Assembly (NCBI GenBank): GCA_937901395.1
Contig: CALCDB010000017.1
Span: 1-57,651 of the forward strand
Length of the DNA: 57,651 bases
From: an uncultured Verrucomicrobiota bacterium
Lineage (GTDB): Bacteria; Verrucomicrobiota; Kiritimatiellia; RFP12; UBA1067
Reading direction: 5' to 3'
A model generated the notes under the pieces. It did no database searches and was not told the origin of the DNA. It saw nothing but the letters and a program-made list of their open reading frames with translations. Positions 1-57,014 of this stretch are shown here, one piece after another. The translations under genes and the position numbers were made by a program. How positions within the stretch are numbered: the stretch's first letter is position 1; each line of letters starts with the position of its first letter.

Positions 1-834
1 CTGCCGGTCATCGATCTCACGACGGCGAAGCTCATCAGCGCGGCGGCGGTGAAGGCGAAGACGGTTGCGAAGGTGCACTTCAAGCTCGACACGGGCATGG
101 GACGGCTGGGTATCCTGGCGAAGGACGCGCTTCAGGTGATGCGCGAGGTGAGAAAGCTGCCGAACCTTGACTGCGAAGGAATCTTCTCGCACTGTCCCAT
201 GGCATATGCGCCCAAGGATCCATTCACCAATCGGCAGATAGCGAGATTCAAGGCGATCGTATCAGAGGCGGCGAAAGAAGGTTTCACCTTCAAGAAGGTG
301 CACATCGCAGCATCGGATGCGATTAATAATTTTCCACTTACGGCGAAGGCGCCATTCACGATGGTGCGTACGGGCATTAATCTGCATGGCTCGTTTGATC
401 CATTGGGACGCAAGGCGCTCAAGGTCGAGCCGGTATTGAGCTTAAAGACGAGAGTGGCGCAAGTGAGGGAGTTGCCTGCGGGCACGACTCTCGGCTATGG
501 GCGTACATGGTGCTTGAACCAGCCGACCAAGGTAGCCACGATTTCGGCGGGTTATGCGGATGGGTTGCCGCTCGCGCTCACGAATCGTGGGTTCGTGTTC
601 ATTGGCGGCAAGAGGTGTCCGATAATCGGCAGAATCTCCATGGACTACACGACCGTAGATGTGTCGGGCGTGAGGAATGTTCGCGCTGGAGACGAAGTAA
701 TATGCTTCGGCAGATGCGGTAACGATACAATCACGCCAGATGATTGGGCGGCCTTAAAGGGCACGCATGCGTATGACATAATCTGCTCGCTTGGCAACCG
801 CGTCGAGCGTGTGGTCAAACAAGGTGGCATTTGA
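1..834 (+). CDS. alr: alanine racemase, C-terminal part (5' end lies upstream of the window)
   Basis: Frame-1 ORF is open from base 1. KLDTGMGRLG, GYGRTW and GRISMDYTTVDV segments match the PLP-dependent alanine racemase family. Confidence 0.85.
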   Translation: MPVIDLTTAKLISAAAVKAKTVAKVHFKLDTGMGRLGILAKDALQVMREVRKLPNLDCEGIFSHCPMAYAPKDPFTNRQIARFKAIVSEAAKEGFTFKKVHIAASDAINNFPLTAKAPFTMVRTGINLHGSFDPLGRKALKVEPVLSLKTRVAQVRELPAGTTLGYGRTWCLNQPTKVATISAGYADGLPLALTNRGFVFIGGKRCPIIGRISMDYTTVDVSGVRNVRAGDEVICFGRCGNDTITPDDWAALKGTHAYDIICSLGNRVERVVKQGGI

Positions 835-840
835 TATAAT
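832..840 (+). promoter_or_regulatory. extended -10 element TGATATAAT (overlaps alr stop)
   Basis: TGATATAAT lies 6 nt before ATG 847, leaving no room for an SD. Predicts a leaderless mRNA. Confidence 0.6.
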
Positions 841-846
841 ACGCGT

Positions 847-3066
847 ATGTATTCTCGCAAGTTTATTATCGTAGTTGCAGTTGCAAGCACCATGATGAAT
901 GCGTTGGCGATGAAGCTTACGCAGAACGATGGAGAGTTTGCGCTTTCCGGCAAGGTATCATCAGCGTTGGCAGGAGTAAAGATTCCTCCAATATTGTGCA
1001 ATGAGACGGCGAAGTTTGATGTTGAGGATTTCGCGCGTCATTGCGAATCGGCTGTCGCCGCGCGGCTGAAGAAGGGAAAGTTGAAGGAGCTGGTAAATGA
1101 TCGGCGCTTCATCGTCAACGTGCTCGCCTTGGATGCGATTCGGACTGCGGGAGCGACAAACCTAAGCGCGCTGGTAGCGAAGGACGCTAAATACGCCACC
1201 TTCATGAAAAGCTTCTTTGCGGATGCAGAATTCCTCACGCTCTACGCTGGCGCAGGTTTGGTTCCTCGCGATACGGGAGTTGGCATTCGGGTAATGGCGG
1301 ATATTTGGTTTCGCGATGGCAAGAGCGCAGATTTCGACAAGCGGCTTGCCGCTGGAATAGGCGCAGCTTGGGGCGCGGGGCCACTAAGCGATACCTTGCA
1401 GCAAGGCGAGTTGTTGCCACACGGCGATGGCAATCGGTGCGATCCGGTATGGCGGTATTTCTTCTTTCGGCAGAGTGAACGCGAAGGGCTCTTGCACCCA
1501 AACTATTCATCGCTGCGGCCATGGGAGATACGCTTTATCGTTGGCAATCGCTGGGATGATGAATCGCTTTGGTGGTTGCAGAAGCGCGTGAATCTACCAT
1601 GGGATCAATATGGTTGGGCGTGTTGGGTAGCGAAGTATACGGGGATGAGCATCTTCGGGGCGACGGTTCAGGGCGCATTGTTTACGGTGCATGCACCGAC
1701 CGCAATGGGAAGCGGTGAAAACACAGTCTTGCACGGTGGAGTATGCGGGGCGTTGAGTCATACGGGTTGTCATGCGGCGGCGGCACATGGCATTCCGGCT
1801 TATACGGCTGGGCAACCTGGGCATTGCGCGTATGGTTTTCGCCTTGAACGCGGAAAGTGGATCGGTGGATTCGGCGGGCCCGATGGTAGCCCCCATAATT
1901 GGATATTCCCGGGAAATGCGCCAGACATGGTGGATTTGATGGAGAGCGCCTTCAAGAATGATACGCGCGTGGATAGGTGCGTAGTGTTGTTGGCAATCGC
2001 GCGGGCGGGATCGGATGAAGCTTGGAAGGAAGTGGTAAAGGCCTGGCCGTATAATTATTATGTGCAACAGGAGTACCTTGGTAAGCTTCGTTCCGAGGGT
2101 AAGGATCTCGCCAAATACGCTACTACATTGCTCAAGCCATACGCGAAGAAGGGCTTTGCCTTGGTTGAGGTATTAAAGCCATTCAACGGCGATATCGTTA
2201 GGCGAATGGACGATGCGAGTAAGGTAAAGTGGTATCTCGCGCTCAACAAGGCGATTGCGTCTTCACCCGCGAGTTGGACGGCCAAGAATCTATCGGAGAT
2301 TCTTGATGGCGAGGCGAAGTCGCTTAACAATGACAATGAGGCAGATTTCGTAAGCGGACTTTTCTCGCTTTACAACGCTGGCAGCAATAACGAGGCGTTC
2401 GGTACTATGCTGGGGTGGACAATCGACAGGTATGTAGGCAACGGGAGAGACGAGGTGTTTACGAAGGCGCTCAGCGGTATTTCGTCGGCACAATCCACCA
2501 AGGGCGGCAAGCCGGTCGATGGAGGGATTTTCTCAAAGGCGATTATTTCGGCGGAGAAGGCGGGCAGCATTACCGCCGTAACTGCGCTTACGCAATTGGC
2601 GAAGAGCAATGGCTTGGGCGGAAGTGGGGATAACGGGAGCAAATTGGAATTGCCTGCGAACGAGAAGTTGGTATCCGACAAGGGAATGCTTTCAATCTCG
2701 TCCACATGTAATTGGGATAAACCAGTTGCGCACTTAGATGTGCTTAGCGACGTTGGCGGGGTATTCCACACTGACAAGGAGACGGGCAACTGGGCGCTCG
2801 TGAAGCTACCGGAAAGCGTAGCGGTTTCATCAATAATACTGGCAAAGAATGCTGGCAATGAATCGCGGACTCGTCATGTGAAGGTTTCGCGCAGCACGGA
2901 TGGAGCCACATTCTTCACGGTGGCGGAAACGAACGATATGGGCAAGGAATGGCGGATTGACGCGAAAGGCGAGATGGCACAGTGGATCAAGGTCGAGCGG
3001 CTTGATAACGAGCCGGATTTCTTCCATCTGCGTAATATCCTTATTTTCACGGGGGTGAATAAATGA
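847..3066 (+). CDS. secreted hypothetical protein with C-terminal F5/8 type C (discoidin)-like domain
   Basis: 739-aa ORF with a signal-like N-terminus (MYSRKFIIVVAVASTMMNALA). The last ~130 aa (WALVKLPESVAVSSIIL..HVKVSRSTDGATF..FFHLRNILIF) look like a discoidin beta-sandwich. The central part is unassigned. Confidence 0.65.
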   Translation: MYSRKFIIVVAVASTMMNALAMKLTQNDGEFALSGKVSSALAGVKIPPILCNETAKFDVEDFARHCESAVAARLKKGKLKELVNDRRFIVNVLALDAIRTAGATNLSALVAKDAKYATFMKSFFADAEFLTLYAGAGLVPRDTGVGIRVMADIWFRDGKSADFDKRLAAGIGAAWGAGPLSDTLQQGELLPHGDGNRCDPVWRYFFFRQSEREGLLHPNYSSLRPWEIRFIVGNRWDDESLWWLQKRVNLPWDQYGWACWVAKYTGMSIFGATVQGALFTVHAPTAMGSGENTVLHGGVCGALSHTGCHAAAAHGIPAYTAGQPGHCAYGFRLERGKWIGGFGGPDGSPHNWIFPGNAPDMVDLMESAFKNDTRVDRCVVLLAIARAGSDEAWKEVVKAWPYNYYVQQEYLGKLRSEGKDLAKYATTLLKPYAKKGFALVEVLKPFNGDIVRRMDDASKVKWYLALNKAIASSPASWTAKNLSEILDGEAKSLNNDNEADFVSGLFSLYNAGSNNEAFGTMLGWTIDRYVGNGRDEVFTKALSGISSAQSTKGGKPVDGGIFSKAIISAEKAGSITAVTALTQLAKSNGLGGSGDNGSKLELPANEKLVSDKGMLSISSTCNWDKPVAHLDVLSDVGGVFHTDKETGNWALVKLPESVAVSSIILAKNAGNESRTRHVKVSRSTDGATFFTVAETNDMGKEWRIDAKGEMAQWIKVERLDNEPDFFHLRNILIFTGVNK

Positions 3067-6694: not shown

Positions 6695-6723
6695 TTGACT
6701 TTTGCGACAGAATATCATATAAT
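6695..6723 (+). promoter_or_regulatory. sigma70-type promoter (TTGACT - 17 nt - TATAAT)
   Basis: -35 TTGACT at 6695-6700, a 17-nt spacer, then -10 TATAAT at 6718-6723. An AGGAGG SD and ATG 6764 lie downstream. Confidence 0.6.
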
Positions 6724-8289: not shown

Positions 8290-8298
8290 TGATATAAT
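8290..8298 (+). promoter_or_regulatory. extended -10 element TGATATAAT
   Basis: Lies 7 nt before ATG 8306, with no SD. Confidence 0.55.
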
Positions 8299-8305
8299 AT
8301 ACACG

Positions 8306-10024
8306 ATGAATATGACGAGCGATGATTTTGAGTTTGCTGTTTTAGCAAATATGGTCGACTACCCCGACAAAGCATTTACGGGGATTCGAGACATTGGTAT
8401 AGACGAAAGTTATTTTCATAACCCTGTCTATGTTAGCGCTTTCACCGAATTGATGCAAATTAGTGAAGAACCTGATAGAGATACGCGACGGAAAAAACTT
8501 TCTTCTGTTTTGCGTGATAAGTTCAACCCAGACGAGTTTCGTGATCGTTTCGCCTCGTTCGTCGCTAATCCTGCTAAGGTCAACTATTATCTGTGTGGCT
8601 TAGCCGAACAGGCAATTCGATACAATTGCAAAAAATCCATCAGCGAGGTGTTTAACAACGCATCACTGCAGAGCGACATGATTCCAGAATATGTCGCCAG
8701 TATCACCTCGGAGATGAATGCCCGACTCGATGCACTTAAGGCGTTTCGCAAATTGCCCGTCGAAAGCGACAAGAACGAAATTGACGGCACTAAGCCAATT
8801 CCCGAAGAGTTGCTTAACGCCCCTGGATTCATTGACGAGTACATAAAGTTCACCATGCGCACCGCTCAACGCCCCAATCGTGTGCTCGCATTCTCAGGCG
8901 CGCTTGCTATACTCTCAATTCTTACTGCTCGTAAGTATCAAAGTGTTCGTAAGGCAACGCCCAATCTCTATATCGTGGCGCTTGCTGAATCTGGGGTTGG
9001 CAAAGCTCATGCTCGCCATATCAACAAATCAATCGCTTCCGCTTGTAATATGTGCGATGCGATCGCTGATCGTATTGGCTCGGGGGAAGGACTTGAAGAT
9101 GCGCTTCGGCGCACACCAGCGATGCTCTTTCAAATTGATGAATTTGATACCTTGCTTAACGCAATGAAAAGTCCAAGCAACATCAGCGAGGGAATTTATA
9201 CCTATATTCTTAATCTATTTTCCGAAGCGCGTGAAGTTCATCACATTCGCAAGAAAGCAATGAGTGGCGAGCGAACAACCGCTCCAGACAAAATATATGC
9301 GCCCTCGGTTACAATCTACGCTACCGCTACCCCACAGCATTTCTACGACTCCCTTTCAAAGCGGGCGTTAGACAATGGTTTTATTGCCCGTTTGTTGATT
9401 TTCGAAGTCGGTAAGCGCGGAAAAATTGGCGACCTTACGGCAAGTGAAACTCTGCCATCTGAAATTTTGGAGCCGGCGCGAGTTTTCACCAATCGGCTTT
9501 GCCCCATTGACCAAATGCCAAATCCATACGTTGTGCCAGACGATGTCGGAGCCGATGGACGCGCTAAGGCCATTTCAGATGAAGCCGATGCGCTTTACGA
9601 TAAAAGCTGTGAACAACACGATGGCGCAGGTTTGGCGATATGGAATCGTGGGTTTGAGATGACGGATAAGCTTGCGCTTCTCTATGCATTGAGCGAAAAT
9701 CCTGCAATGCCGAAAATTACCGCAAAGGGACTTGATTGGGCGTGGAAAATTGTGCGCTACTGTTTTGAGCGTATGCTCGCGATGTCAAAGGAATACGTCT
9801 CAGCCGACCAGTATGATGCCGACGCAAATGCGGTATTGCGCAAGATTCGCTCTTATGGTGCAAAAGGCGTAATGCACAGCGAGATTTCGAGAGTATTGGG
9901 CTACACCTCAAAACGAATGGAATCTGCCATTAAGACGCTAATTGACCGTGAGTCGATTATTGTAACCTCGGGCAATCGAAATGCGAAAATTTATCGCATC
10001 AAGCAGAAAGGTAAGTTGAAATGA
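8306..10024 (+). CDS. replicative helicase-like protein: DnaB N-terminal-like domain + DUF3987-type P-loop NTPase + C-terminal wHTH-like tail
   Basis: N-terminus DFEFAVLANMV..YFHNPVYVSAFTELM resembles the DnaB N-domain. Walker A-like LAESGVGKAHA, Walker B-like LFQIDEFD, and NGFIARLLIFEV are present. The layout is typical of YfjI/P4-type mobile-element helicases. Confidence 0.65.
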   Translation: MNMTSDDFEFAVLANMVDYPDKAFTGIRDIGIDESYFHNPVYVSAFTELMQISEEPDRDTRRKKLSSVLRDKFNPDEFRDRFASFVANPAKVNYYLCGLAEQAIRYNCKKSISEVFNNASLQSDMIPEYVASITSEMNARLDALKAFRKLPVESDKNEIDGTKPIPEELLNAPGFIDEYIKFTMRTAQRPNRVLAFSGALAILSILTARKYQSVRKATPNLYIVALAESGVGKAHARHINKSIASACNMCDAIADRIGSGEGLEDALRRTPAMLFQIDEFDTLLNAMKSPSNISEGIYTYILNLFSEAREVHHIRKKAMSGERTTAPDKIYAPSVTIYATATPQHFYDSLSKRALDNGFIARLLIFEVGKRGKIGDLTASETLPSEILEPARVFTNRLCPIDQMPNPYVVPDDVGADGRAKAISDEADALYDKSCEQHDGAGLAIWNRGFEMTDKLALLYALSENPAMPKITAKGLDWAWKIVRYCFERMLAMSKEYVSADQYDADANAVLRKIRSYGAKGVMHSEISRVLGYTSKRMESAIKTLIDRESIIVTSGNRNAKIYRIKQKGKLK

Positions 10025-11001: not shown

Positions 11002-11010
11002 TGGTATAAT
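11002..11010 (+). promoter_or_regulatory. extended -10 element TGGTATAAT (island cassette copy 1)
   Basis: Lies 6 nt before ATG 11017. Part of a ~45-bp sequence repeated at 40458-40502. Confidence 0.55.
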
Positions 11011-11016
11011 ATAGCC

Positions 11017-11085
11017 ATGTCGTATGAAGAAGCGATAAAGAAAAATGAGTTATATTCCTCCATATACAATAAGCGAATATTATGA
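11017..11085 (+). CDS. putative leaderless mini-ORF (22 aa, MSYEEAIKKNELYSSIYNKRIL)
   Basis: ATG lies 6 nt after the -10 box. The first 9 codons are near-identical to the mini-ORF at 40476. Coding status unproven. Confidence 0.3.
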   Translation: MSYEEAIKKNELYSSIYNKRIL

Positions 11086-12317: not shown

Positions 12318-12326
12318 TGATATAAT
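12318..12326 (+). promoter_or_regulatory. extended -10 element TGATATAAT
   Basis: Lies 8 nt before ATG 12335. The TTG at 12332 listed in the ORF track is too close to the -10 box. Confidence 0.55.
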
Positions 12327-12334: not shown

Positions 12335-13411
12335 ATGACGTATGATGATTTGAGTTTAAGCGAGTTTCGTGGTTACTTTCAAGCGAAGGAGCCAGGAAAG
12401 CGCGAACGGGCGTTCGCGTGGTCTACGGCCATTGGATTACAAGATGTTGACGGACTTTCCGTCTCTCGGTATTTGGTTGAGACAGCTAAGGACCATATTG
12501 AGGGACGAATTACTCAATCCCAGGCGCGACGACGCATACACGACTATTACGAGGCGAAGAGCGAACAGCGTGCGCCAAATCTCGAGTTGCTTGAACCAGA
12601 TAAGGTGGCGGAGCGAATTGCAGCTGTCATCAATGATGGAGGGTTTGCCTTTACTCCGGAATATTTCATTTCACTCCACGCCAAATTATTCCGTGGAGTC
12701 TTATCATCGGCAGGGAAACTGCGGACACACAACATCCGCAAGCATGAGTGGGTATTGAAGAATGATTCGGTTATTTATGGCGACAAGGCGACGCTGAAGG
12801 CCTCGTTAGTGAGGAACTTCGCGGATGAACGTGAATACGATTACGGCGGTAAGTCGTTGGCAGAGATCATTCCGCATTTTACGCGCTTTATCGCACAGGT
12901 TTGGCAGGTGCATCCTTTCGGTGAAGGCAATACGCGCACGACTGCGGTCTTTGCCATCAAGTATCTGTGTGCACTTGGTTATCGCGTTGCAATCGACATA
13001 TTTCGAGATAACTCTTGGTATTTTCGTAATGCGCTTGTCAGAGCCAATTATGCCGATTATGCGCGGGGGGTGAAGCGAGATTGGGGGTATCTTGAATTGT
13101 TTTTCCGCAACTTGCTTTTGGGCGAAAAGAATGAGCTTAAGAACCGCTATTTGCTAATTGGCTTCAATCGTCCGAAGGAAGATGGCAAAGGTTGTCAGAA
13201 AAAGGTTGTCAGAAAAGGTTGTCAGAAAACGGTTGAACGCTTATTCGGTTTGCTTAAGGCACGTCCGCATTTGACGCAAATTGATATGGCTACGGCATTG
13301 GGGATTTCGCGTCAAGCGGTGCAGAAGCATCTCGCCAACTTGAAGGCCGCAGGGCGTATCCGCCGTGTGGGCCCCGACAAGGGTGGTCATTGGGAGACGA
13401 GGGTAATTTGA
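12335..13411 (+). CDS. Fic/DOC family protein with C-terminal winged-HTH
   Basis: Fic motif variant HPFGEGNTRTTAVF. C-terminal LTQIDMATALGISRQAVQKHLANLKAAGRIRRVG is HTH-like. Confidence 0.85.
   Translation: MTYDDLSLSEFRGYFQAKEPGKRERAFAWSTAIGLQDVDGLSVSRYLVETAKDHIEGRITQSQARRRIHDYYEAKSEQRAPNLELLEPDKVAERIAAVINDGGFAFTPEYFISLHAKLFRGVLSSAGKLRTHNIRKHEWVLKNDSVIYGDKATLKASLVRNFADEREYDYGGKSLAEIIPHFTRFIAQVWQVHPFGEGNTRTTAVFAIKYLCALGYRVAIDIFRDNSWYFRNALVRANYADYARGVKRDWGYLELFFRNLLLGEKNELKNRYLLIGFNRPKEDGKGCQKKVVRKGCQKTVERLFGLLKARPHLTQIDMATALGISRQAVQKHLANLKAAGRIRRVGPDKGGHWETRVI
13187..13229 (+). repeat. 3x tandem AAGGTTGTCAGAA repeat with 14- and 13-nt spacing, inside the Fic gene linker
   Basis: Core copies at 13188-13200, 13202-13214 and 13215-13227. 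They are read in different frames (KGCQK / KVVRK / GCQK). Confidence 0.9.
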
Positions 13412-13447
13412 GGGTTGGAATGGGTATGGACGATGTGAGTTAAAATG

Positions 13448-13456
13448 TGGTATAAT
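13448..13456 (+). promoter_or_regulatory. extended -10 element TGGTATAAT
   Basis: TGGTATAATATAGCCATG is identical over 18 nt to the island cassette promoters. Lies 6 nt before ATG 13463. Confidence 0.55.
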
Positions 13457-13462
13457 ATAGCC

Positions 13463-14272
13463 ATGATTACATTGATTATTGCTATTGTAGTTGCGGGGGG
13501 CGTTTTCGCTTCCACGCATTATGTTTTTGATTGGAGTCTCATCTGGAGCATCGTGATGGGAGTCGTCGGATTTGGCGTTTTTCAAGTGCTGATGAGCATC
13601 TTGATTCAACGTCGAGTAAAGGCGGATATGTTGCGAGTTCAGGATATCCTTATGGGCGGGCAAAAACGTTTGCAACAGAAGATGCAACGTTGGCAGATGC
13701 GTCCACCGGGTTCGCTTCAAGCGGCGCAAAAGGAGATTTTCGAAGATACGAAGTTGTTCGTGAAATCGGCATTGGAAGAGACGGAAAAGCTCAGCAAGTA
13801 CAGACTTTGGGTGCCGATGATGGAGAGGCAGATCGCGACGGCGAGGGTGCAGCTTAGTTGGATGATAAAAGATTTCAAGGCGGTTGATAACAACATGAAG
13901 AAGGCGTTGTTATTGGATCCAAGCATGGCGGCGATTAAGATGGCGCGTATGTATATGCTCGATGAGCCGATAGATGCGATTATGAAGGTGTATCACAAGG
14001 GCGTCGCGAGAGTTCGCTACAATGGGAATGTGCTTTTGGCCGCTACGATGAGTTGGATTCAAGTGCATAGAAATGATGCGGATGGCGCATTCAAGACATT
14101 GACGGAGGCGCTTAAGAAGAGCGACAACGCGACATTGAAGCAAAATCACGAGCATCTTATGAATAATCGAGTTGCGCACTTCTCCAATTCGGGCATTGGC
14201 GATCAATGGTATTCGCTATTATTGGAAGAGCCGAAAGTTCATGTGCAGCGTCAGAGGAGCGTTTATCGTTAA
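13463..14272 (+). CDS. membrane protein (two N-terminal TM helices, helical C-terminal domain)
   Basis: The ORF-track start at 13445 lies inside the -10 box, so the next in-frame ATG at 13463 (MITLIIAIVVAGG..) is preferred. Confidence 0.65.
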   Translation: MITLIIAIVVAGGVFASTHYVFDWSLIWSIVMGVVGFGVFQVLMSILIQRRVKADMLRVQDILMGGQKRLQQKMQRWQMRPPGSLQAAQKEIFEDTKLFVKSALEETEKLSKYRLWVPMMERQIATARVQLSWMIKDFKAVDNNMKKALLLDPSMAAIKMARMYMLDEPIDAIMKVYHKGVARVRYNGNVLLAATMSWIQVHRNDADGAFKTLTEALKKSDNATLKQNHEHLMNNRVAHFSNSGIGDQWYSLLLEEPKVHVQRQRSVYR

Positions 14273-19281: not shown

Positions 19282-19912
19282 AATTCTTTATATGCTTGGG
19301 GTATTGGCTACGGTGTTCGCAGTGAATTATACATTGCGAGCCCTGCCCTTTATACTCTTTCATAGACGCGATCAGGAATTGCCGAAGTGGGTAGCGCAAT
19401 TTGGCAGGATTATCTCGCCGATAATTTTCGGCGGGCTCATCATCTATTGCTATGCAGGTTTGCAGTGGCGTTCTCCATGGCCATACATTGCGGGGTTTGT
19501 TACGATCGCGTTGCAAGTATGGAGGCACAACGCGCTTGTTTCAATTGTGACGGGGACTATCCTATATATGATTTTGATTAACTGTTGCGGGTGTTCGACA
19601 GTTCATCGTTCAATTCAAGTCGATGCGAGGGAGCCTTCATTGCGCGTCACTACGAAGGGAGTGATGTTGGGTAATGAATACGTTGACCCATACGAAGTAG
19701 CCGATATTCTTGAGGATTTTGACATACCATACGATCGCACGATCCATATCCGCATCGATAACGACGTGACCGATCTCATGCCTTCGCGTACTTTGATGGG
19801 GCTTTTGGCCAAGGCTGGGTATACTAGCCCGGTGTTGGTAACGAAGCGTCATGCAGAATCGCGGGCTCTTGGGGATATGAAGAAGCAAGAGAAGGTGATA
19901 CGGCGGCGATGA
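19253..19912 (+). CDS. azlD: AzlD-like membrane protein with ~110-aa C-terminal extension
   Basis: The first ~105 aa are hydrophobic and AzlD-like (..YTLRALPFILF..). The soluble C-terminal part (TIHIRIDNDVTDLMPSRTLMGLLAKAGYTSPVLVT) is not part of canonical AzlD. Confidence 0.6.
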   Translation: MWGSFDMKDEILYMLGVLATVFAVNYTLRALPFILFHRRDQELPKWVAQFGRIISPIIFGGLIIYCYAGLQWRSPWPYIAGFVTIALQVWRHNALVSIVTGTILYMILINCCGCSTVHRSIQVDAREPSLRVTTKGVMLGNEYVDPYEVADILEDFDIPYDRTIHIRIDNDVTDLMPSRTLMGLLAKAGYTSPVLVTKRHAESRALGDMKKQEKVIRRR

Positions 19913-21975: not shown

Positions 21976-21981
21976 TATAAT
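21973..21981 (+). promoter_or_regulatory. extended -10 element TGATATAAT (overlaps ligA stop)
   Basis: Lies 12 nt before the ATG 21994 of a 6-codon mini-ORF. Confidence 0.5.
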
Positions 21982-21993
21982 ACCCCTCAAACA

Positions 21994-22014
21994 ATGAAAA
22001 TCAAGCAACGATGA
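21994..22014 (+). CDS. putative 6-codon mini-ORF (MKIKQR) overlapping the downstream start by ATGA
   Basis: ATG AAA ATC AAG CAA CGA TGA. Its stop overlaps ATG 22011. Coding status unproven. Confidence 0.25.
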   Translation: MKIKQR

Positions 22015-27949: not shown

Positions 27950-27964
27950 ACTTAGATGGCGCGT

Positions 27965-27973
27965 ATTATATCA
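27965..27973 (-). promoter_or_regulatory. extended -10 element TGATATAAT for tRNA-Pro
   Basis: Reverse complement of 27965-27973 is TGATATAAT, with 15 nt between the hexamer and the mature tRNA 5' end. Confidence 0.5.
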
Positions 27974-28002
27974 AAAATTTTTGCATTTGTGCGAATATAA
28001 TT

Positions 28003-31895: not shown

Positions 31896-31904
31896 TGATA
31901 TAAT
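31896..31904 (+). promoter_or_regulatory. extended -10 element TGATATAAT
   Basis: Lies 9 nt before ATG 31914. Confidence 0.5.
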
Positions 31905-35869: not shown

Positions 35870-35878
35870 TGATACAAT
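35870..35878 (+). promoter_or_regulatory. extended -10 element TGATACAAT (infC promoter)
   Basis: TGATACAAT is followed ~25 nt later by an AAGAGG SD at 35901-35906. Confidence 0.5.
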
Positions 35879-35912
35879 ATCAACATCATTAACCAAAAAG
35901 AAGAGGTGTGTT

Positions 35913-36491
35913 ATCGGACAGTTCACTCGTGTAAACTATAAGATTCGCGTTCCGCAGGTTCGCGTTCTTGATTCGCAAGGACAAATGCTCGGCGTTATGG
36001 CAACGCGAGATGCAATACGCTTAGCGGAGGATCGCGGGCAAGATTTGGTGGAGATTACGCCGAATGCGACTCCGCCAGTTTGCAAGATAATGGATTACGG
36101 TAAGTTCAAATACGAAGAGTCCATTAAGGAGAAGCAGGCGCGCAAAGCCCAGAAGGTGCAGAAGGTGAAGGAGATCAAGTTCCACCCAGGAACTGATACC
36201 AACGACTTCAACTACAAACTCAATCAGATACGCGGGTTCATCAAGGATGGTTGCAAGGTAAAACTCACGCTTCAGTATCGTGGACGCGAGAATGCGCACC
36301 GCGAATTGGGCGAGGATGTAATCAATCGCGTATTGGAAGCGCTTCAGGGCGAATGCTTCGTTGAACAGGCGCCGAAGACGCTGGGCAAGGTGCTTGGCGC
36401 ATTGATTGGTCCGCCGCGCAAGAATGGTCCGAAGTCTACGGGAAGTACGACATCGAGCAATTTCGGCGGCATTAAGATATCGGTATCATGA
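35913..36491 (+). CDS. infC: translation initiation factor IF-3, predicted non-AUG (AUC) start
   Basis: The reading frame is open from 35868. The conserved N-domain (VNYKIRVPQVRVLDSQGQMLGV) lies upstream of the first ATG (35985). In-frame ATC 35913 sits 6 nt after AAGAGG. PPVCKIMDYGKFKYE and the C-domain are present. Confidence 0.8.
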   Translation: MGQFTRVNYKIRVPQVRVLDSQGQMLGVMATRDAIRLAEDRGQDLVEITPNATPPVCKIMDYGKFKYEESIKEKQARKAQKVQKVKEIKFHPGTDTNDFNYKLNQIRGFIKDGCKVKLTLQYRGRENAHRELGEDVINRVLEALQGECFVEQAPKTLGKVLGALIGPPRKNGPKSTGSTTSSNFGGIKISVS

Positions 36492-40460: not shown

Positions 40461-40469
40461 TGGTATAAT
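40461..40469 (+). promoter_or_regulatory. extended -10 element TGGTATAAT (island cassette copy 2)
   Basis: Lies 6 nt before ATG 40476. Part of the ~45-bp repeat shared with 11001-11045. Confidence 0.55.
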
Positions 40470-40475
40470 ATAGCC

Positions 40476-40514
40476 ATGTCGTATGAAGATGCAATAAAGA
40501 AAGCGGAGGAATGA
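40476..40514 (+). CDS. putative leaderless mini-ORF (12 aa, MSYEDAIKKAEE) translationally coupled to the next gene
   Basis: Its codons GCG GAG GAA TGA supply a GGAGGA SD and an ATGA overlap with ATG 40511. The peptide start is shared with the mini-ORF at 11017. Confidence 0.3.
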   Translation: MSYEDAIKKAEE

Positions 40515-46274: not shown

Positions 46275-46283
46275 TGGTATAAT
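46275..46283 (+). promoter_or_regulatory. extended -10 element TGGTATAAT
   Basis: Lies 8 nt before ATG 46292. Confidence 0.55.
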
Positions 46284-46291: not shown

Positions 46292-47983
46292 ATGGATCAG
46301 ATTCTTCAGTTGTTAGTACAGAATGGCTATATCGATGAGGCCAGTGCGAAAGATCTTCAAGATCTTTCAAAGACGGAGTCGAAGACAGTTCGTCAGTTGG
46401 TCATTGACCAAGGGATTGTCGATGAGGATACTTTGTTGTCGGTGATGGCGGCGTATCAAGACACCGAGGCGATAGACTTGGGGTCGATGACGATAGAATC
46501 CGAAGTAACCGAGGCGATACCCGCATCCACTGCGCGGATGTATAATGTATTTCCGATTAGCAGTGATGATAGTTCGGTTACGTTGGTTACCTACGATCTT
46601 ATCGATCCGCGGATATCGGACGAGTTGCTGTTTTCGCTTTCGAAGGAAGTGAAGTTCGTCTTTGCGCGCGAGCAGGACGTAAGGGAGCGCATCGCGCAAT
46701 ACTATGGCGACTCAAACGATTCGGTCGCAGATATGATCAAGTCGTTGGGCGAGGGGATGACGGATGACGAGAGCCTCGCGGCGACGGCGAATTCGAACGA
46801 TATCGCCTCGATGGAGAATGCGGCGAATTCGAGCGCGATCGTGAAGTTCGTGAATTTAGTTTTGTATCAGGGGGTAGTGGATCACGCGGCGGATATTCAT
46901 ATCGAGCCATTTGAGAATGATTTCAAGATTCGTTATCGTGTAGATGGCGCGCTTTACGAGATGAAGGCGCCGGACGTTAAGATGGCGCCAGCGATTATTT
47001 CACGCGTGAAGATTTTGGCGAACTTGAATATCGCGGAGCGTCGCGTGCCGCAGGATGGGCGCATCGCGCTCACGGTCGCGGGAAGGCCGGTGGATTTGCG
47101 CGTTTCGTGCTTGCCGACTTCGCATGGCGAATCGGTGGTAATGCGTATTCTCGACCAGACCACGACATCGTTGGATTTGGAGAACGTTGGGTTGCCGGAA
47201 GACGTGTACGAGCAAATCACGATGGATATCGAGAAGCCGAATGGCATCTTCATCGTGACTGGTCCGACGGGTTCGGGCAAGACGACTACATTGTATTCGG
47301 TATTGCGGCGCATCAACACGATTGATTCGAAGTTGCTTACGGCGGAGGAGCCGGTTGAATACAACGTCGATGGAATCGTGCAAGTTCCGATTGATGCGCA
47401 TGCCGGCAATACCTTCGCGAAGGTGTTGCGCGCATTCTTGCGTCAAGACCCCGATATCATGATGATTGGAGAGATTCGTGATTTGGAGACGGCGGAAATC
47501 GCGGTCCAGGCGGCGCTCACTGGGCACTTCGTATTCTCCACTCTGCACACCAATGATGCGGCGGGCGCGGTAATGCGTTTGGTGGATATGAACGTTGCGC
47601 CATATTTGTTGTCTTCCACGCTGGAGGGTGTCTTGGGGCAGCGCTTGGTAAGAACCTGCTGCAAGGAATGCAAGCAAAGCTACGAGCCGGATGACGAGAC
47701 ATTGGAGCGCATCGAAATGACGCGCGATCAGATCGGCGGGCGTCCATTCTATTTCGGCAAGGGCTGCAAGACGTGTAACGGCACCGGATACAAGGGGCGC
47801 AAGGGGGTGTTCGAATATTTGCGGATGTCGAATCCATTGCGCGAGCTGGTGAACAACCGTGCGCCTACCTTGATTATTCGCGAGAAGGCGCGAGAGTTGG
47901 GGATGCGGACGATGCGTGAGGATGGTATACGTTCCATTCTCGACGGTTACACGACCGTTGACGAGGTATTGCGTTACACCTAA
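46292..47983 (+). CDS. GspE/PilB-family secretion/type IV pilus assembly ATPase
   Basis: N-terminal GSPII_E_N-like domain. Walker A GPTGSGKTTTLY, Asp box MIGEIRD, His box FSTLHTNDA, and tetracysteine CKECK..CKTCNGTG. Confidence 0.9.
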   Translation: MDQILQLLVQNGYIDEASAKDLQDLSKTESKTVRQLVIDQGIVDEDTLLSVMAAYQDTEAIDLGSMTIESEVTEAIPASTARMYNVFPISSDDSSVTLVTYDLIDPRISDELLFSLSKEVKFVFAREQDVRERIAQYYGDSNDSVADMIKSLGEGMTDDESLAATANSNDIASMENAANSSAIVKFVNLVLYQGVVDHAADIHIEPFENDFKIRYRVDGALYEMKAPDVKMAPAIISRVKILANLNIAERRVPQDGRIALTVAGRPVDLRVSCLPTSHGESVVMRILDQTTTSLDLENVGLPEDVYEQITMDIEKPNGIFIVTGPTGSGKTTTLYSVLRRINTIDSKLLTAEEPVEYNVDGIVQVPIDAHAGNTFAKVLRAFLRQDPDIMMIGEIRDLETAEIAVQAALTGHFVFSTLHTNDAAGAVMRLVDMNVAPYLLSSTLEGVLGQRLVRTCCKECKQSYEPDDETLERIEMTRDQIGGRPFYFGKGCKTCNGTGYKGRKGVFEYLRMSNPLRELVNNRAPTLIIREKARELGMRTMREDGIRSILDGYTTVDEVLRYT

Positions 47984-51006: not shown

Positions 51007-52182
51007 TTATTTGAAGGTAGTGACATTTGAGTTAGGTCCGAAAGGAGAGAGCGCACGAAGATTCTTTATTATTGGAGGCAGCTTCTCAAGTACGTAGTCG
51101 ATATCCGCCATCGTATTGTAGCGAGAGAGGGAGAAGCGGATGGAGCCGTGAATTGCGGTGAAGGGAACGCCCATCGCGCGAATCACGTGGCTGGGGTCGA
51201 GCGAGCCGCTCGCGCAAGCGGAGCCAGTGGAGATGCAAATGCCAATATCCGAAAGATGATAAGCGATGGCTTCGCCTTCAATATATTCAAACGACACATT
51301 AAGGGTATTGGGCAAGCGAGAGGTCTTATCGCCATTCACGCGAACATTTGGGCAGGTGGCGAGGATGCCAGATTCCAATTTATCCCTAAGAGCGGCGAGC
51401 TGTACCTGTTCTGCGTTCATCCCGAGGCGAGCCAATTCGCAAGCTTTGGCGAGTCCGACGATATAGGGCACGTTTTCCGTTCCAGCGCGGCGAGAATGTT
51501 CTTGATGTCCGCCAAGCATGAATGGCTTAAGTTTGGTTCCCTTGCGCACATAGAAGATACCGACGCCCTTAGGCGCATGGAATTTATGGCCTGACATCGA
51601 AAGCATATCGACGGGAACTTTTTTTACATCCACTGGAATCTTACCGGCAACTTGTACCGCATCGGTATGGAGAATTGCGCCAGCTTCCTTGCAAAGCTCG
51701 GCAATCTTATCAATGGGGAAGATAACGCCAGTTTCATTATTCGCCCACATGATACTGACCAAAGAGCCGGGCTTCAACTCGCGGCGTAATTGATCGAGAT
51801 CGAGGCGGCCGAGAGAATCGACAGGCAGTTCGACGACTTCATGGCCAAGCGCTTTGAGACGGCGACAGGGCTGTAGCACGGCGGGGTGCTCGACGGCGCT
51901 GGTAATTACCTTAAGGTCTTTGCCATAATATTCGGCGGTTCCGCGAATTGCGGCGTTATCGGATTCGGTGGCGCAAGAAGTGAAGATGATTTCGTCGCTT
52001 TCGGCGTTAATGAAACGTGCGACTTCTTCGCGCGCCTTGTCGATGTATTTTGCGATTTCACCGCCAAAGGCGTGCATGGAACTGGGGTTGCCGTATAATT
52101 CGCCGAAAAACGGAAGCATGGCTTCGCGAACTTCAGGGGCAATCCGAGTCGTGGCATTGTTATCAAGATATACTGTTTTCAT
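51007..52182 (-). CDS. nifS: cysteine desulfurase, NifS/IscS class
   Basis: MKTVYLDNNATTRIAPEV..YGNPSSMH, PLP-lysine region SMSGHKFHAPKG, and the active-site loop STGSACASG. The ORF-track start at 52239 lies upstream of the -10 box. Confidence 0.9.
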   Translation of the reverse strand: MKTVYLDNNATTRIAPEVREAMLPFFGELYGNPSSMHAFGGEIAKYIDKAREEVARFINAESDEIIFTSCATESDNAAIRGTAEYYGKDLKVITSAVEHPAVLQPCRRLKALGHEVVELPVDSLGRLDLDQLRRELKPGSLVSIMWANNETGVIFPIDKIAELCKEAGAILHTDAVQVAGKIPVDVKKVPVDMLSMSGHKFHAPKGVGIFYVRKGTKLKPFMLGGHQEHSRRAGTENVPYIVGLAKACELARLGMNAEQVQLAALRDKLESGILATCPNVRVNGDKTSRLPNTLNVSFEYIEGEAIAYHLSDIGICISTGSACASGSLDPSHVIRAMGVPFTAIHGSIRFSLSRYNTMADIDYVLEKLPPIIKNLRALSPFGPNSNVTTFK

Positions 52183-52194
52183 AATGTAAGCGAT

Positions 52195-52203
52195 ATTATA
52201 CCA
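52195..52203 (-). promoter_or_regulatory. extended -10 element TGGTATAAT for nifS
   Basis: Reverse complement of 52195-52203 is TGGTATAAT, 12 nt before ATG 52182. It sits back-to-back with the dnaE promoter. Confidence 0.5.
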
Positions 52204-52209
52204 CAAATT

Positions 52210-52218
52210 TGATATAAT
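52210..52218 (+). promoter_or_regulatory. extended -10 element TGATATAAT for dnaE
   Basis: Lies 7 nt before ATG 52226. Confidence 0.55.
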
Positions 52219-52225: not shown

Positions 52226-55200
52226 ATGTCTGAATTCATTCATCTTCATTTGCATACGACATACTCATTGCTCGATGGGCAATGTCAGATCGTGCCATTG
52301 ATAGCGAAGGCGAAGAAAATGGGGATGAATGCGGTTGCGGTAACCGACCATGGCAATCTTTTTGCGCTCAAGGGGTTCTATGACGAATGTCGCGCCAAGG
52401 GGATCAAGCCGATTCTCGGGGTCGAGGCGTACGTGACCTCAAGCGGCGATTATCGTAGCCGCGATAAGAATGAGCGGCGGCATCACCTTTGCCTGCATGC
52501 GAAGAACTTGACGGGGTATCATAATTTGGTGAAGCTCATTTCGGAAGCGCATATCAATGGGTTTTATCACAATGCGCGTATTGATCACGCGTTATTGGAG
52601 AAGTATCATGAGGGCTTGCACTGTTCTTCGGCTTGCATTTACGGCGAAGTAGCATACTATCTTGACGATGACTTGGAGTCAGGGGGGAATGATCCGGCGA
52701 AAGCGGAGGAGATAGCGAGGTGGTATCACAATTTATTTGGCGATGATTATTCATTGGAAGTAATGTTGCATCCATCTGGCAAGGGCGAGGGGGTATCTTC
52801 GATACCGGCGAAGGAGCCGATACCAGTGGAAGCGATAGCCGGTTTTCGTAGCCTGTATCAACGCCAGAAGCGCATTACCGAAAAGATGATTGCGCTTGGC
52901 AAGAAACTTGGGATACGGGTAATTGCAACGAACGACGTGCATTTTCTGGAAAAGGAAGATGATGATTCGCATGATGTATTATTAGCGCTTTCGACGGGCA
53001 AGAAGATGTCAGAATCGGGGCGCATGATCTATACGGGGCAGGAATATTTCAAGTCGGAAGAGGAGATGCTGGAATTATTCAAGGAATATCCAGAAGTAGT
53101 CGCGGCAACGAAGGAAGTAGCGGATAGGGTCGAGGAATACGAGCTTAATTCCGATCCGATTATGCCGAAGTTTCCGATTCCCGAAAGCTTTGGCACGGAG
53201 GCGCAATATGCCGAACGTTACGACGAGGCGGCGTTAAGAAAAGAGTTCAACACCGAGGAAAAGCCGAAGAACTTCGAGCGTCTGGGGGGCTATGACAAGG
53301 TCTTGCGAATCAAGTTCGAGGCGGATTATCTATCGGCGTTAGTTTACGAGGGAGCCAAGCGCAGATGGGGCGAACCGCTGGATAGCGATATCAGGGAACG
53401 AATAGATTTTGAATTGAATGTAATCAAGACGATGGGTTTTCCTGGGTACTTTCTTATCGTCAACGATTATATTTCGAATGCGCGCAAAATGGGAGTATGG
53501 GTAGGACCGGGGCGTGGTTCGGCGGCTGGCGCGGCGGTAGCTTATGCGCTTGGTATAACCAATGTGGATCCGCTAAAATATGATTTGCTATTTGAACGCT
53601 TCCTCAACCCCGATCGAATTTCGATGCCAGATATCGATGTCGATTTTGATGATGCCGGACGCGCCAAGGTGTTTGATTTCATAACCGCCAAATATGGTCA
53701 AGATCATGTAGCGCATATCGTTACCTTTGGTCAGATGGCCGCGAAGAGCGTAATCAAGGATGTGGGGCGGGTAATGGGGTATAAACTGGCAGATACGAAC
53801 AAGTTGGTTTCGTATGTTCCCGATACTCCAAAGATAACCTTCAACAAGGCGATTGAGGTGTCGCCAGAATTAAAGGCGGCCTTTGAATCGAAAGATCCAG
53901 TAATCCACCTTCTGATGCAACGCGCGAAGCGACTTGAGGGGGGAATGCGTCAACCAGGAGTGCACGCTTGCGGAGTGATTATTTCGCGAGATCCGTTAAT
54001 TGACACCTTGCCGGTAATGCCGACGGAAGGCGAGTCATTAATGACTACGCAATATGATGGACATTTCGTGGAGCCGGTTGGGCTGCTCAAGATGGATTTC
54101 TTAGGGCTTAAGACGCTCACGGTGGAAAAGGAATGCGTGGAACTATTGGGGGCGAACAATCCGCGAGTTCCGAAAGAGCTTTGGGGCAAGGACGGAAAGT
54201 TGGACCCAGATAAGATACCTGATGACGATCGCGAAACCTACGAGTTATTCGGACGAGGCGAGACGACGGGACTATTTCAATTTGAATCTGACGGGATGAA
54301 GAAATGGTTGATCGCCTTGCAGCCGGAGAAGCTTACGGATTTGGTGGCGATGAACGCATTGTATCGTCCGGGACCGATGGATTATATTCCAACCTTCGTT
54401 CGGCGTAAGCAAGGCGAGGAGCCGATTAAATACGATCATCCTTTGATGGAGCGGTATTTGAAGGATACGTATGGCGTATGCGTATATCAAGAGCAGGTGA
54501 TGTTGCTTTCGCGATTATTGGGAGGATTCACGCGCGGGATGTCGGATGCGCTTCGCAAGGCGATGGGCAAGAAGAAGCTTGATGTAATGGAGGCGCTGAA
54601 GGTTAAGTTCATAGACGGGTGTTTGGCGAACAAGGAATTCAGGGTAGACAAGTGGGCCGATGAAGCGGAAGCGCGTGCGTTAATCGATAAGATATGGAAT
54701 GATTGGCGGGCATTCGCATCGTATGCGTTTAACAAGTCGCATGCAGTGTGCTACGCGTGGATAGCATATCAGACGGGATACTTAAAGGCGCACTATCCAT
54801 CGGAGTTCATGTGTGCGCAAATCAGTTCGGAAATTGGCAACTTCGATAAGCTACCCGGGTTCGTTGCTGAAGCGCAGGAGATGGGCTTAAAGTTGATGTT
54901 GCCAGAAGTAAATGAATCGGGTTCACGATTCGTTCCAACGAAAGATTCGAAGGGTATCCGTTATGGGCTTTCTGGCATCAAGGGCGTTGGGAATGCGGGC
55001 GAGATAATCGTTGCGGAGCGCAAGAAGAATGGTCCATACGCGGGATTTCTTGATTTTTGCATGCGGTTAGCGGGCACGCAGGCGGCGAACAAGCGAGTAT
55101 TGGAGAATCTGACGCGCACGGGAGCATTTAGTTCCCTTGAGCCCAATCGTGCATTGCTTTTCAACAATATAGAATTTGCCTTACGCAAGGCGCAGCAACG

Positions 55201-56134
55201 CGCGAAGGAGCGGCAAAGCAATCAGGCGAATTTCTTCGATTTGATGGGAGGCGATGAGAAGCCCTCCGATTCGGAACTTGTAAAATCGCCACCATTCGCG
55301 CCGACGGAAGACCTTAAGCACGAACGAGATTTTCTCGGGGTTTACATTTCTGGGAATCCGCTGCAAAGTTGCAGCAGGGTAATTTCGGAGGTAGCTACTT
55401 TTCGAGCATCGCAACTTGGTGATGTGGCGGTAGTCGACGCGCTATTGAAGGCGCAGCCAGTTGACGAGTGGAAGAAGAAGGGGAATCCGCATCTCAAGGA
55501 TCATCGAGGGTTGACGCATCTTGATGTGCGGATGGTTGGCATTTTAAGCGCATGCACGATAAAGGTAGGCAAGGCAAGAGCGAATGGCGCGCCTGGACAG
55601 AAGTGGGCGATTTTGCAATTGGACGATGGATCTACGATAGATGCGTTTTGCTTTGCGAAGGCCTGGGAAAAGTATGGAGAGGGAATTGAATCTTCGGTTG
55701 ACAAGTTGGTGTTGCTTTGCGGAGAGGTATCGCATAGGGTTGATTACGAGAAGGACGATAAGATAACGAAGCTGAATCCAAGCGTAGGCGATCTCAACTT
55801 CACCGTTCGCGAGGCGTATCCGTTGGATGTGGCGATGATGAAGCTTTCCAAGGGCGTGTACATAAGAATGCAATACGTAGACCCAGAGATTAAGGCGAAG
55901 GTCGACAACATTCGTGAGATCGCGACGCATAATTCGGGGTCGATGCCGATTTACATAGAATTGCATTATCCCAACGGCAAAGTCCTAGATGTGGATTTGG
56001 GGCCTAAGTTTCATGTTAGCTGTTCAATTGGTTTTATCGCAGAGCTTGGCAAGATCGTAGCGCAAAATGAGATATCGTTTCGTCCAAGTTCGACGATATA
56101 TCTAAATCCACCAGAACCTTACTTCAAGCATTAG
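52226..56134 (+). CDS. dnaE: DNA polymerase III alpha subunit
   Basis: PHP domain IHLHLHTTYSLLDG. Also GFPGYFLIV, GPGRGSAAGAAVAYALGIT and PDIDVDF, with a C-terminal OB-fold region. 1302 aa. Confidence 0.95.
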   Translation: MSEFIHLHLHTTYSLLDGQCQIVPLIAKAKKMGMNAVAVTDHGNLFALKGFYDECRAKGIKPILGVEAYVTSSGDYRSRDKNERRHHLCLHAKNLTGYHNLVKLISEAHINGFYHNARIDHALLEKYHEGLHCSSACIYGEVAYYLDDDLESGGNDPAKAEEIARWYHNLFGDDYSLEVMLHPSGKGEGVSSIPAKEPIPVEAIAGFRSLYQRQKRITEKMIALGKKLGIRVIATNDVHFLEKEDDDSHDVLLALSTGKKMSESGRMIYTGQEYFKSEEEMLELFKEYPEVVAATKEVADRVEEYELNSDPIMPKFPIPESFGTEAQYAERYDEAALRKEFNTEEKPKNFERLGGYDKVLRIKFEADYLSALVYEGAKRRWGEPLDSDIRERIDFELNVIKTMGFPGYFLIVNDYISNARKMGVWVGPGRGSAAGAAVAYALGITNVDPLKYDLLFERFLNPDRISMPDIDVDFDDAGRAKVFDFITAKYGQDHVAHIVTFGQMAAKSVIKDVGRVMGYKLADTNKLVSYVPDTPKITFNKAIEVSPELKAAFESKDPVIHLLMQRAKRLEGGMRQPGVHACGVIISRDPLIDTLPVMPTEGESLMTTQYDGHFVEPVGLLKMDFLGLKTLTVEKECVELLGANNPRVPKELWGKDGKLDPDKIPDDDRETYELFGRGETTGLFQFESDGMKKWLIALQPEKLTDLVAMNALYRPGPMDYIPTFVRRKQGEEPIKYDHPLMERYLKDTYGVCVYQEQVMLLSRLLGGFTRGMSDALRKAMGKKKLDVMEALKVKFIDGCLANKEFRVDKWADEAEARALIDKIWNDWRAFASYAFNKSHAVCYAWIAYQTGYLKAHYPSEFMCAQISSEIGNFDKLPGFVAEAQEMGLKLMLPEVNESGSRFVPTKDSKGIRYGLSGIKGVGNAGEIIVAERKKNGPYAGFLDFCMRLAGTQAANKRVLENLTRTGAFSSLEPNRALLFNNIEFALRKAQQRAKERQSNQANFFDLMGGDEKPSDSELVKSPPFAPTEDLKHERDFLGVYISGNPLQSCSRVISEVATFRASQLGDVAVVDALLKAQPVDEWKKKGNPHLKDHRGLTHLDVRMVGILSACTIKVGKARANGAPGQKWAILQLDDGSTIDAFCFAKAWEKYGEGIESSVDKLVLLCGEVSHRVDYEKDDKITKLNPSVGDLNFTVREAYPLDVAMMKLSKGVYIRMQYVDPEIKAKVDNIREIATHNSGSMPIYIELHYPNGKVLDVDLGPKFHVSCSIGFIAELGKIVAQNEISFRPSSTIYLNPPEPYFKH

Positions 56135-56141
56135 TCATTTA

Positions 56142-56150
56142 TGATATAAT
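56142..56150 (+). promoter_or_regulatory. extended -10 element TGATATAAT
   Basis: Lies 6 nt before ATG 56157. Confidence 0.55.
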
Positions 56151-56156
56151 ATTGGC

Positions 56157-57014
56157 ATGGAAATATCTTCACCCAGTAATCCAAAACTTAAATACGTAGT
56201 TCGCCTACGTAATTGTTCCGCTCGCGAAGAATCGGGGGAGATGATAGTCGAGGGGTATCGTGAATGTCGGAGAGCGCTCGATAATAAATACAAGCCGCGA
56301 GCCATCTTTCATTGTCCGGAACTTTATTTGAAGAATGAGAATGAGCCAGAATTAGTTGAAGAATGCAGGAGGATCGGGGCTGAGGTGTATACATGCTCAA
56401 AGGTCTGTTTTGAGAAGATCGCATATAAGGAGCGGCCAGACGGGTTGTTGATGATCGGTCCGCATATATCGATTACGTTGAAGGATTTGAAGTTGCCAGA
56501 AAATGCGTTGGTAATCGTGACGGAGGCGATTGAGAAACCGGGGAATTTGGGGACGATTCTGCGTTCTGCGGATGCGGGGAAAGTTGCGGCGGTAATAGTA
56601 TGCGATCGGACTACTGATATTCACAACCCCAATGTCGTTCGCGCATCCACTGGTACGATGTTTTCAGTTCCGATAGTGGAGGCGACGAGCGAAGAGGCAT
56701 TGGCGTATTTAAAGGCGCATGATTTTAAGATATTGGCGGCCACGCCACATGCGGAGAAGTTGCATTTTGAAGAGGATCTTACGGGGAATGTAGCGATAGC
56801 ATTGGGGGCAGAGCAATATGGGCTTACGGCGAAGTGGATGGATGGAGCGGAATTAAGAGTAAGAATTCCGATGTTAGGATTGGCAGATTCGCTTAACGTA
56901 TCGGCGGCGGCGACGATTTTGGTTTACGAGGCGGTTCGGCAACGAATCGCGAAGGGGATAGACAGTGTTCCAGGCTTCATTCCTTGGCATGGCGAGAGGA
57001 GGCATGATCACTAA
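56157..57014 (+). CDS. SpoU/TrmH-family RNA 2'-O-methyltransferase
   Basis: Motifs present: PGNLGTILRSA, AIALGAEQYGL, IPMLGLADSLNVSAAATILVYE. Confidence 0.85.
   Translation: MEISSPSNPKLKYVVRLRNCSAREESGEMIVEGYRECRRALDNKYKPRAIFHCPELYLKNENEPELVEECRRIGAEVYTCSKVCFEKIAYKERPDGLLMIGPHISITLKDLKLPENALVIVTEAIEKPGNLGTILRSADAGKVAAVIVCDRTTDIHNPNVVRASTGTMFSVPIVEATSEEALAYLKAHDFKILAATPHAEKLHFEEDLTGNVAIALGAEQYGLTAKWMDGAELRVRIPMLGLADSLNVSAAATILVYEAVRQRIAKGIDSVPGFIPWHGERRHDH

Follow-up and report, generated by a model that had tools for sequence, protein, structure and literature searches.

Boxes and genes at the locus

The DNA analysed here is a stretch of 57,651 nucleotides (nt) of contig CALCDB010000017.1 (C17; referred to throughout as the window), in which the sequence TG(A/G)TATAAT repeatedly stands a few nucleotides before an ATG. 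The contig belongs to an assembly of 1.55 Mb in 210 contigs that is 71% complete and has a G+C content of 51.8%. Because the product of its dnaE gene (52226-56134) is 73-74% identical to proteins from rumen and gut metagenome-assembled genomes labelled Kiritimatiellia or Kiritimatiellae, the source is placed as an uncultured gut or rumen member of the Kiritimatiellia, within the Planctomycetes-Verrucomicrobia-Chlamydiae (PVC) group. The initial annotation of the window had proposed that its transcription units begin with this box 6-9 nt before the ATG, which would give leaderless mRNAs.

TG(A/G)TATAAT occurs 14 times in the window (Table 1). Dinucleotide-preserving shuffles predict 1.2 copies, and none of 100 shuffles reached 14. 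No other variant of TGNTATAAT is present in the window. An ATG follows at a spacer of 6-9 nt in 11 of the 14 cases (P = 1.7e-11, with a chance of 4/64 per box), and reading these eleven pairs site by site reproduced the annotated positions, with spacers of 6, 7, 6, 8, 6, 7, 9, 6, 8, 7 and 6 nt. The description of the eleven as first genes needs qualification: all eleven ATGs do follow boxes, but two of them (11017 and 40476) open only mini-open reading frames (mini-ORFs), 22 and 12 codons long, with a longer gene behind each. Four cases with short leaders (at 21973, the minus-strand nifS, tRNA-Pro and infC) were also found as described. The infC start is probably a non-AUG codon, ATC at 35913, which shares its reading frame with 35985 and stands behind the GAAGAGG of the leader. 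Non-AUG starts are usual for infC, where they serve IF3 autoregulation.

Table 1. Boxes of the window, with their positions and the starts or genes that follow them.
Box	Box position	Feature extent	Strand	Spacer (nt)	Start codon	Gene or remark
TGATATAAT	832-840	832-840	+	6	ATG 847	739-aa gene 847-3066; TGA of box is stop of upstream ORF (ends 834)
TGATATAAT	8290-8298	8290-8298	+	7	ATG 8306	DUF3987 protein gene 8306-10024
TGGTATAAT	11002-11010	11002-11085	+	6	ATG 11017	22-codon mini-ORF 11017-11085, N-terminus MSYEEAIKK
TGATATAAT	12318-12326	12318-12326	+	8	ATG 12335	Fic/HTH protein gene 12335-13411; TTG 12332 within spacer
TGGTATAAT	13448-13456	13448-13456	+	6	ATG 13463	Membrane protein gene 13463-14272; in-frame ATG 13445 overlaps box
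TGATATAAT	21973-21981	21973-22014	+	12		6-codon mini-ORF MKIKQR-stop 21994-22014; TGA of box is stop of gene 19909-21975
TGATATAAT	27965-27973	27873-27973	-	15		tRNA-Pro 27873-27949
TGATATAAT	28003-28011	28003-28011	+	7	ATG 28019	Gene 28019-29182; TTG 28013 within spacer; back to back with tRNA-Pro box
TGATATAAT	31896-31904	31896-31904	+	9	ATG 31914	LptA-like gene 31914-32396
TGATACAAT (imperfect)	35870-35878	35870-35915	+			infC; leader with GAAGAGG follows
TGGTATAAT	40461-40469	40461-40514	+	6	ATG 40476	12-codon mini-ORF MSYEDAIKKAEE-stop
TGGTATAAT	46275-46283	46275-46283	+	8	ATG 46292	GspE/PilB-type ATPase gene 46292-47983
TGGTATAAT	52195-52203	52180-52203	-	12	ATG 52182-52180	Cysteine desulfurase gene 51007-52182
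TGATATAAT	52210-52218	52210-52218	+	7	ATG 52226	dnaE 52226-56134; 6 bp from divergent nifS box
TGATATAAT	56142-56150	56142-56150	+	6	ATG 56157	SpoU/TrmH methyltransferase gene 56157-57014; box 8 nt past dnaE stop

Spacing rule and identity of the box

The 1.55-Mb genome contains 234 copies of TGNTATAAT, compared with roughly 60 expected (scaled from the window shuffles). Distances from these boxes were tabulated to each ATG standing at the head of an ORF of 100 or more amino acids. At 3, 4 and 5 nt there are 0, 1 and 0 such ATGs; at 6 to 12 nt the counts are 13, 22, 21, 18, 10, 7 and 5, and by 13 nt the signal has decayed. From 14 to 22 nt about one ATG is found per position, and a second, broader hump at 23-35 nt corresponds to short leaders, several of its ATGs having a separate GGAGG. 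The peak at 6-9 nt on which the initial annotation had staked its rule is thus present genome-wide, with a hard floor at 6 nt. An abrupt floor is expected if transcription cannot start less than about 7 nt from the hexamer and the AUG must lie on the transcript. Start codons at 5-12 nt comprise 96 ATG (91%), 5 GTG, 4 TTG and no CTG. As to the perfect boxes themselves, 99 of the 234 (42%) abut a long ORF and 23 a mini-ORF, while 112 have no ATG at 5-12 nt. Overall, about half of the strong promoters stand 6-12 nt ahead of an ATG, and their mRNAs should have a very short leader or none. With a relaxed box, 114 genes are boxed (about 18 expected), or roughly 7% of a gene set of about 1400 crude longest-ORF calls. 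Intergenic distances proved unreliable for estimating what share of first genes is leaderless, given this crude gene set and promoters that often lie within 8-40 nt of an upstream stop codon.

The closeness of box and ATG could reflect genome compaction or chance, the true starts lying downstream behind Shine-Dalgarno sites. The crudeness of the longest-ORF calls leaves room for this, as do the two of eleven window ATGs that open only mini-ORFs before a longer gene. We nevertheless regard it as extremely improbable. A perfect TGnTATAAT lies 5-12 nt before the 5'-proximal ATG of 75 ORFs, whereas internal in-frame ATGs predict 0.3, an enrichment of more than 100-fold, and the spacing has a sharp floor at 6 nt. 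The protein N-termini also agree with the boxed ATGs: signal-peptide-like N-termini start exactly at the predicted Met of 847, 28019 and 31914, and the product of the gene that starts at 52182, a class-V aminotransferase (NifS/cysteine desulfurase), matches the Pfam NifS profile from residue 4. Conservation to the first residue in the orthologues of dnaE and of the 13463 membrane protein, described below, likewise argues against downstream starts.

The consensus of the 102 aligned TATAAT boxes that abut a start is A(-19) A(-18) T(-17) n T(-15) G(-14) R(-13) TATAAT A(-6), with the TG present in 84 of 102. The absence of a clear -35 element, as initially annotated, largely holds for the window, where only 3 of 14 boxes have a 4/6 match at 16-18 nt. 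Genome-wide, however, T-36, T-35 and G-34 are each found in about 45-50% of the aligned promoters, albeit with a weak signal (0.14-0.24 bit). The box is also found in front of tRNA genes. Eighteen tRNA genes were found, of which 16 stand alone or head a cluster, and in 14 of these 16 the box is present as TGATATAAT, TGATATACT or a near match, 14-20 nt upstream of the mature 5' end. Because tRNAs are untranslated, TG(A/G)TATAAT is best read as the extended -10 of a housekeeping (sigma-70-type) promoter and not as a ribosome-binding signal. It is not the only promoter type in the window, there being at least two others: TTGACT-17-TATAAT at 6695-6723, before the Shine-Dalgarno-led gene 6764, and the TGATACAAT of infC.

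The 16S rRNA ends in GGATCACCTCCTT, a canonical anti-Shine-Dalgarno tail, and internal genes of the window have either AGGAGG (4264, 6764 and 37419) or 4-nt ATGA/GTGA overlaps, in agreement with the initial annotation. These two features mean that the Shine-Dalgarno system is intact and simply unused at the boxed first cistrons, where the hexamer sits in the place that a Shine-Dalgarno site would need to occupy.

UAUAAU might instead act mainly at the RNA level, as a non-Shine-Dalgarno element that binds the ribosome or S1 on read-through transcripts, similar to those of Bacteroidota (GeneMarkS-2 group B). Many boxes are located 8-40 nt past the stop codon of a co-directional upstream gene with no terminator between, so that read-through transcripts bearing the motif probably exist. 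This explanation is nonetheless very unlikely, as the TG of the extended -10 (84/102) and the T at -17 are DNA-level features, untranslated tRNA genes have the box, and among the ATGs preceded by the box at 23-35 nt several possess their own GGAGG. A group B-type site, with the same motif before first and internal genes on leadered mRNAs, was rejected on similar grounds: genes joined by 4-nt overlaps have no box and rely on the overlap or on GGAGG, while tRNA genes possess it.

Conservation in related genomes

Eighteen other genomes of the same GTDB genus were searched for TGNTATAAT-N5-10-ATG. They contain 50-271 matches each, compared with 9-89 for the same-width control N17-22, and the 5-10 nt spacing exceeds this control by about 2.5- to 6-fold in all 18. 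A reversed-pattern control yields 0-9 matches. Among 120 other genomes of the class, high counts are found only in three of the four sampled genera of its own family (own genus included), in two further families of the same order (f9 and f11) and in family f13, in which the reversed-pattern control is high too. Other families of the Kiritimatiellia may use looser boxes.

Comparisons of orthologues are the strongest indirect evidence for the predicted starts. Of the 18 evaluable genus orthologues of the 13463 membrane protein (58-74% identity), 13 share its M-(I/V/L)-T-L start with a box at a distance of 6-9 nt upstream, even though the flanking DNA can no longer be aligned; in the remaining five, the gene follows immediately on the stop codon of its upstream neighbour. 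The annotated correction of this start from 13445 to 13463 is supported because the 13445 ATG overlaps the box and its counterpart is out of frame in L102, the one orthologue checked by hand. The corrected starts are reasonable on this basis and on that of the NifS profile. Five dnaE orthologues (L001, L004, L005, L007 and L008; 51-74% identity) have TG-n-TATAAT or TATACT 6-12 nt before a conserved MS-FxHLH start, including the distant L005 and L008, in which TGCTATACT is found 9 and 6 nt before the ATG, respectively. The N-terminus of the window's own protein, MSEFIHLH, matches homologues from many phyla to the first residues. The conserved N-termini of both families and the start of the NifS profile are indirect indications that the predicted AUG is the N-terminus.

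The gspE-type ATPase gene (46292) shows how the arrangement can vary. In 15 of 20 orthologues (loci L082-L100) the gene begins 2-8 nt behind the stop codon of a conserved upstream gene, to which it is translationally coupled. In four (its own genome, G002, G005 and G149) the ATG is preceded by a box at 8-12 nt, and the remaining one (G018) has a box and a mini-ORF with AGGAGA overlapping the start. An island of roughly 6.3 kb lies upstream of gspE in its own genome. The box arrangement and this island suggest that a gene that becomes first in its unit acquires the compact promoter and not a promoter plus leader. The second residue of the protein tracks the arrangement, with MDQ in boxed genes and ML, MN, MV or MI in most of the coupled orthologues.

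Transcript starts, translation and related systems

The proposed model for expression from these promoters is as follows. RNA polymerase bound at the box would start about 7-10 nt after the hexamer. Where the ATG lies 6-9 nt downstream, the first nucleotide of the transcript would be the A of the AUG or one lying 1-3 nt ahead of it; with spacers of 10-12 nt, the 5' end would fall a few bases further upstream of the AUG. Such mRNAs would have no room for a Shine-Dalgarno site, and a ribosome carrying initiator tRNA presumably recognises the 5'-terminal AUG. Downstream cistrons would be read by way of GGAGG sites or 4-nt stop/start overlaps. The sequence shows the DNA-level rule and its conservation, whereas the precise point at which transcripts start and the way in which ribosomes load are inferred. 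We consider it likely that transcripts from the extended -10 promoters begin at the AUG or within a few bases of it and that translation follows the leaderless route.

The divergent nifS and dnaE genes illustrate the geometry. Their ATGs are 43 bp apart and the two boxes between them are separated by 6 bp, which leaves no room for leaders. This arrangement would be workable only with -35-poor promoters and mRNAs of little or no leader.

Several observations weigh against a uniformly leaderless, self-contained set of transcripts. The spacing mode is 7-8 nt and not 6, with a tail to 12-13 nt. Positions -1 and -2 relative to the ATG are only modestly enriched in pyrimidines (52-78%), where a start at the A predicts more, and the ATG share of boxed genes is only slightly above that of strongly Shine-Dalgarno-led genes (91% versus 83%). 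The neighbourhood of the boxes points the same way. In 57 co-directional strict cases the box overlaps or abuts the upstream ORF in 14 and lies within 25 nt of its end in 17 more, so that 31 of 57 boxes are within the upstream gene or no more than 25 nt from its end, and terminator-like hairpins before boxes do not exceed the shuffled expectation in any third of the window. Longer transcripts may thus also carry the boxed genes, and on these another initiation route would be needed. With boxes so near the ends of upstream genes and terminator hairpins unenriched, a box would indicate where transcription begins without necessarily insulating an operon, and read-through is probable. The partition of the window into about 14 operons that had been annotated is therefore a plausible conjecture.

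The spacing also bears on how many of these mRNAs are leaderless in the strict sense. If transcription had a fixed start 7 nt after the hexamer, only genes with a spacer of 6 would be leaderless, and those with spacers of 7-12, the majority, would have leaders of 1-6 nt. The mode at 7-8 nt, the tail to 12 nt and the purine at the 7th position of some spacers (G at -1 for 8290, A at -3 for 31896 and A at -1 for 52210) suggest that many boxed mRNAs may carry such leaders instead of none. Start-site selection in Escherichia coli falls on positions 7-10 after the hexamer with a preference for purines, and a comparable range would allow spacers of 6-9, that is 74 of the 96 ATG cases, to start on the A; the pyrimidine-rich positions -2 and -1 also argue against a fixed start. 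A strictly fixed start is thus possible but rather unlikely. It would refine the proposal of starts at or near the AUG and not oppose it, although the translation efficiency of mRNAs with leaders of 1-6 nt may differ.

TRTGnTATAAT, the "-16 region" or extended -10 promoter of Bacillus and other Firmicutes, normally feeds leadered mRNAs that contain a Shine-Dalgarno site. The boxes described here resemble it in the TG one base upstream of the hexamer, the T at -17, the R at -16 and the scarcity of -35 information, but differ in that about 42% of the perfect boxes abut an ATG.

Closer parallels are found among bacteria with leaderless genes. GeneMarkS-2 group C has a Pribnow box about 10 nt from the starts of first genes; it is frequent in Actinobacteria and Deinococcus-Thermus, in which 25-50% of operons are leaderless (PMC6028130). 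Zheng et al. (2011) described a "TA-like signal" located about 10 bp ahead of the start codon (PMC3160421). As in group C genomes (e.g. Mycobacterium tuberculosis) and TA-like genes, a -10 box lies 6-10 nt before first genes that lack a Shine-Dalgarno site; as in group C, internal and leadered genes retain Shine-Dalgarno sites and a sizeable share of promoters is of the leaderless type. Unlike group C, the lineage here is Kiritimatiellia, of the PVC group, the spacing has a tail to 12 nt, and the system is known from sequence. The box is moreover a TG-extended, near-perfect TATAAT in a genome of about 52% G+C, whereas the leaderless-rich phyla of high G+C have a loose TANNNT. In Akkermansia muciniphila, Cappable-seq of mouse caecum placed about 10% of transcription starts on annotated start codons, with TATAAT at -10 (PMC4782308). 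This is likewise a gut bacterium, of the related Verrucomicrobia, with leaderless starts and the same hexamer; it belongs to a different class, and the evidence there is experimental.

Leaderless expression is well known as a mode. What appears to be new, and is well supported by the sequence, is its use, leaderless or nearly so, in a lineage of Kiritimatiellia; no paper was found that pairs "leaderless" with Kiritimatiellota or "promoter" with Kiritimatiellia. Knowledge of the mechanism is unchanged, and the value lies mainly in annotation and in the choice of a lineage for transcription-start mapping. Gene callers that assume Shine-Dalgarno sites will misplace starts in these genomes, as at 13445, 12332, 28013 and 52239, and operon inference from short gaps will fuse units whose promoters sit inside the preceding gene. 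The unusually clean consensus could help in predicting the transcription units of uncultured Kiritimatiellia from rumen and gut, and a PVC-group lineage is added to the bacteria that rely heavily on leaderless initiation.

A wider reading, to which we give an even chance when all of its parts are taken together, is that a family-level clade of gut and rumen Kiritimatiellia is an undescribed leaderless-rich lineage in which about half of the consensus promoters put the AUG at or near the 5' end. Promoter recognition would depend almost wholly on the roughly 15-nt extended -10. So compact an element can fit inside the last codons of an upstream gene, even sharing its TGA stop, and any gene that loses its upstream partner would gain one, as among the gspE orthologues. 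Leaderless mini-ORFs with a terminal Shine-Dalgarno site might act as cassettes that load ribosomes onto the next gene.

Two mini-ORFs of the window overlap the gene that follows. The GGAGGAATGA end of the 40476 mini-ORF provides the next gene with a Shine-Dalgarno site and overlaps that gene's ATG (40511), and the TGA of MKIKQR overlaps the ATG (22011) of a DegT-type aminotransferase gene. Leaderless mini-ORFs as a class are not clearly enriched, however, being found 5-12 nt after 23 boxes against about 16 by chance (our own estimate, from the 135 boxes without a long-ORF ATG), and only those with an ATGA overlap look deliberate. Some recur. The cassette of promoter and MSYE(E/D)AIKK mini-ORF is present in three copies (11002-11085, 40461-40514 and contig C91) that are alike in box, spacer and N-terminus and differ at their C-terminal ends. 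Contigs C76 (two copies) and C132 encode a family of small hydrophobic peptides of 26-43 codons with the N-terminus MGAVEASVVKLALISLLGIGG or MSWEIEVSVVKLALMSLLGIGG, each 8 nt behind TGRTATAAT with the spacer ACGAG[GT]CG. In contigs C31, C39 and C206, a perfect box is followed at 5-10 nt by a minimal ORF consisting of ATG and a stop codon, and this in turn by GGAGG, with the real ATG 18-24 nt later.

Back-to-back divergent boxes are found twice in the window, at 27965-28011 (29 bp apart) and 52195-52218 (6 bp apart). Such paired promoters may compete, since two polymerases could hardly sit on both boxes at once. GC skew, taken in 5-kb windows, is positive throughout positions 1-57651 (+0.10 to +0.27), and the plus strand holds every gene except about four, a strand bias that is unusually strong for 57 kb. 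Lastly, the dnaE product of a contig labelled Agathobacter rectalis (L006) is 52% identical to that of the window and ranks among the Kiritimatiellia matches; this contig is probably mis-binned.

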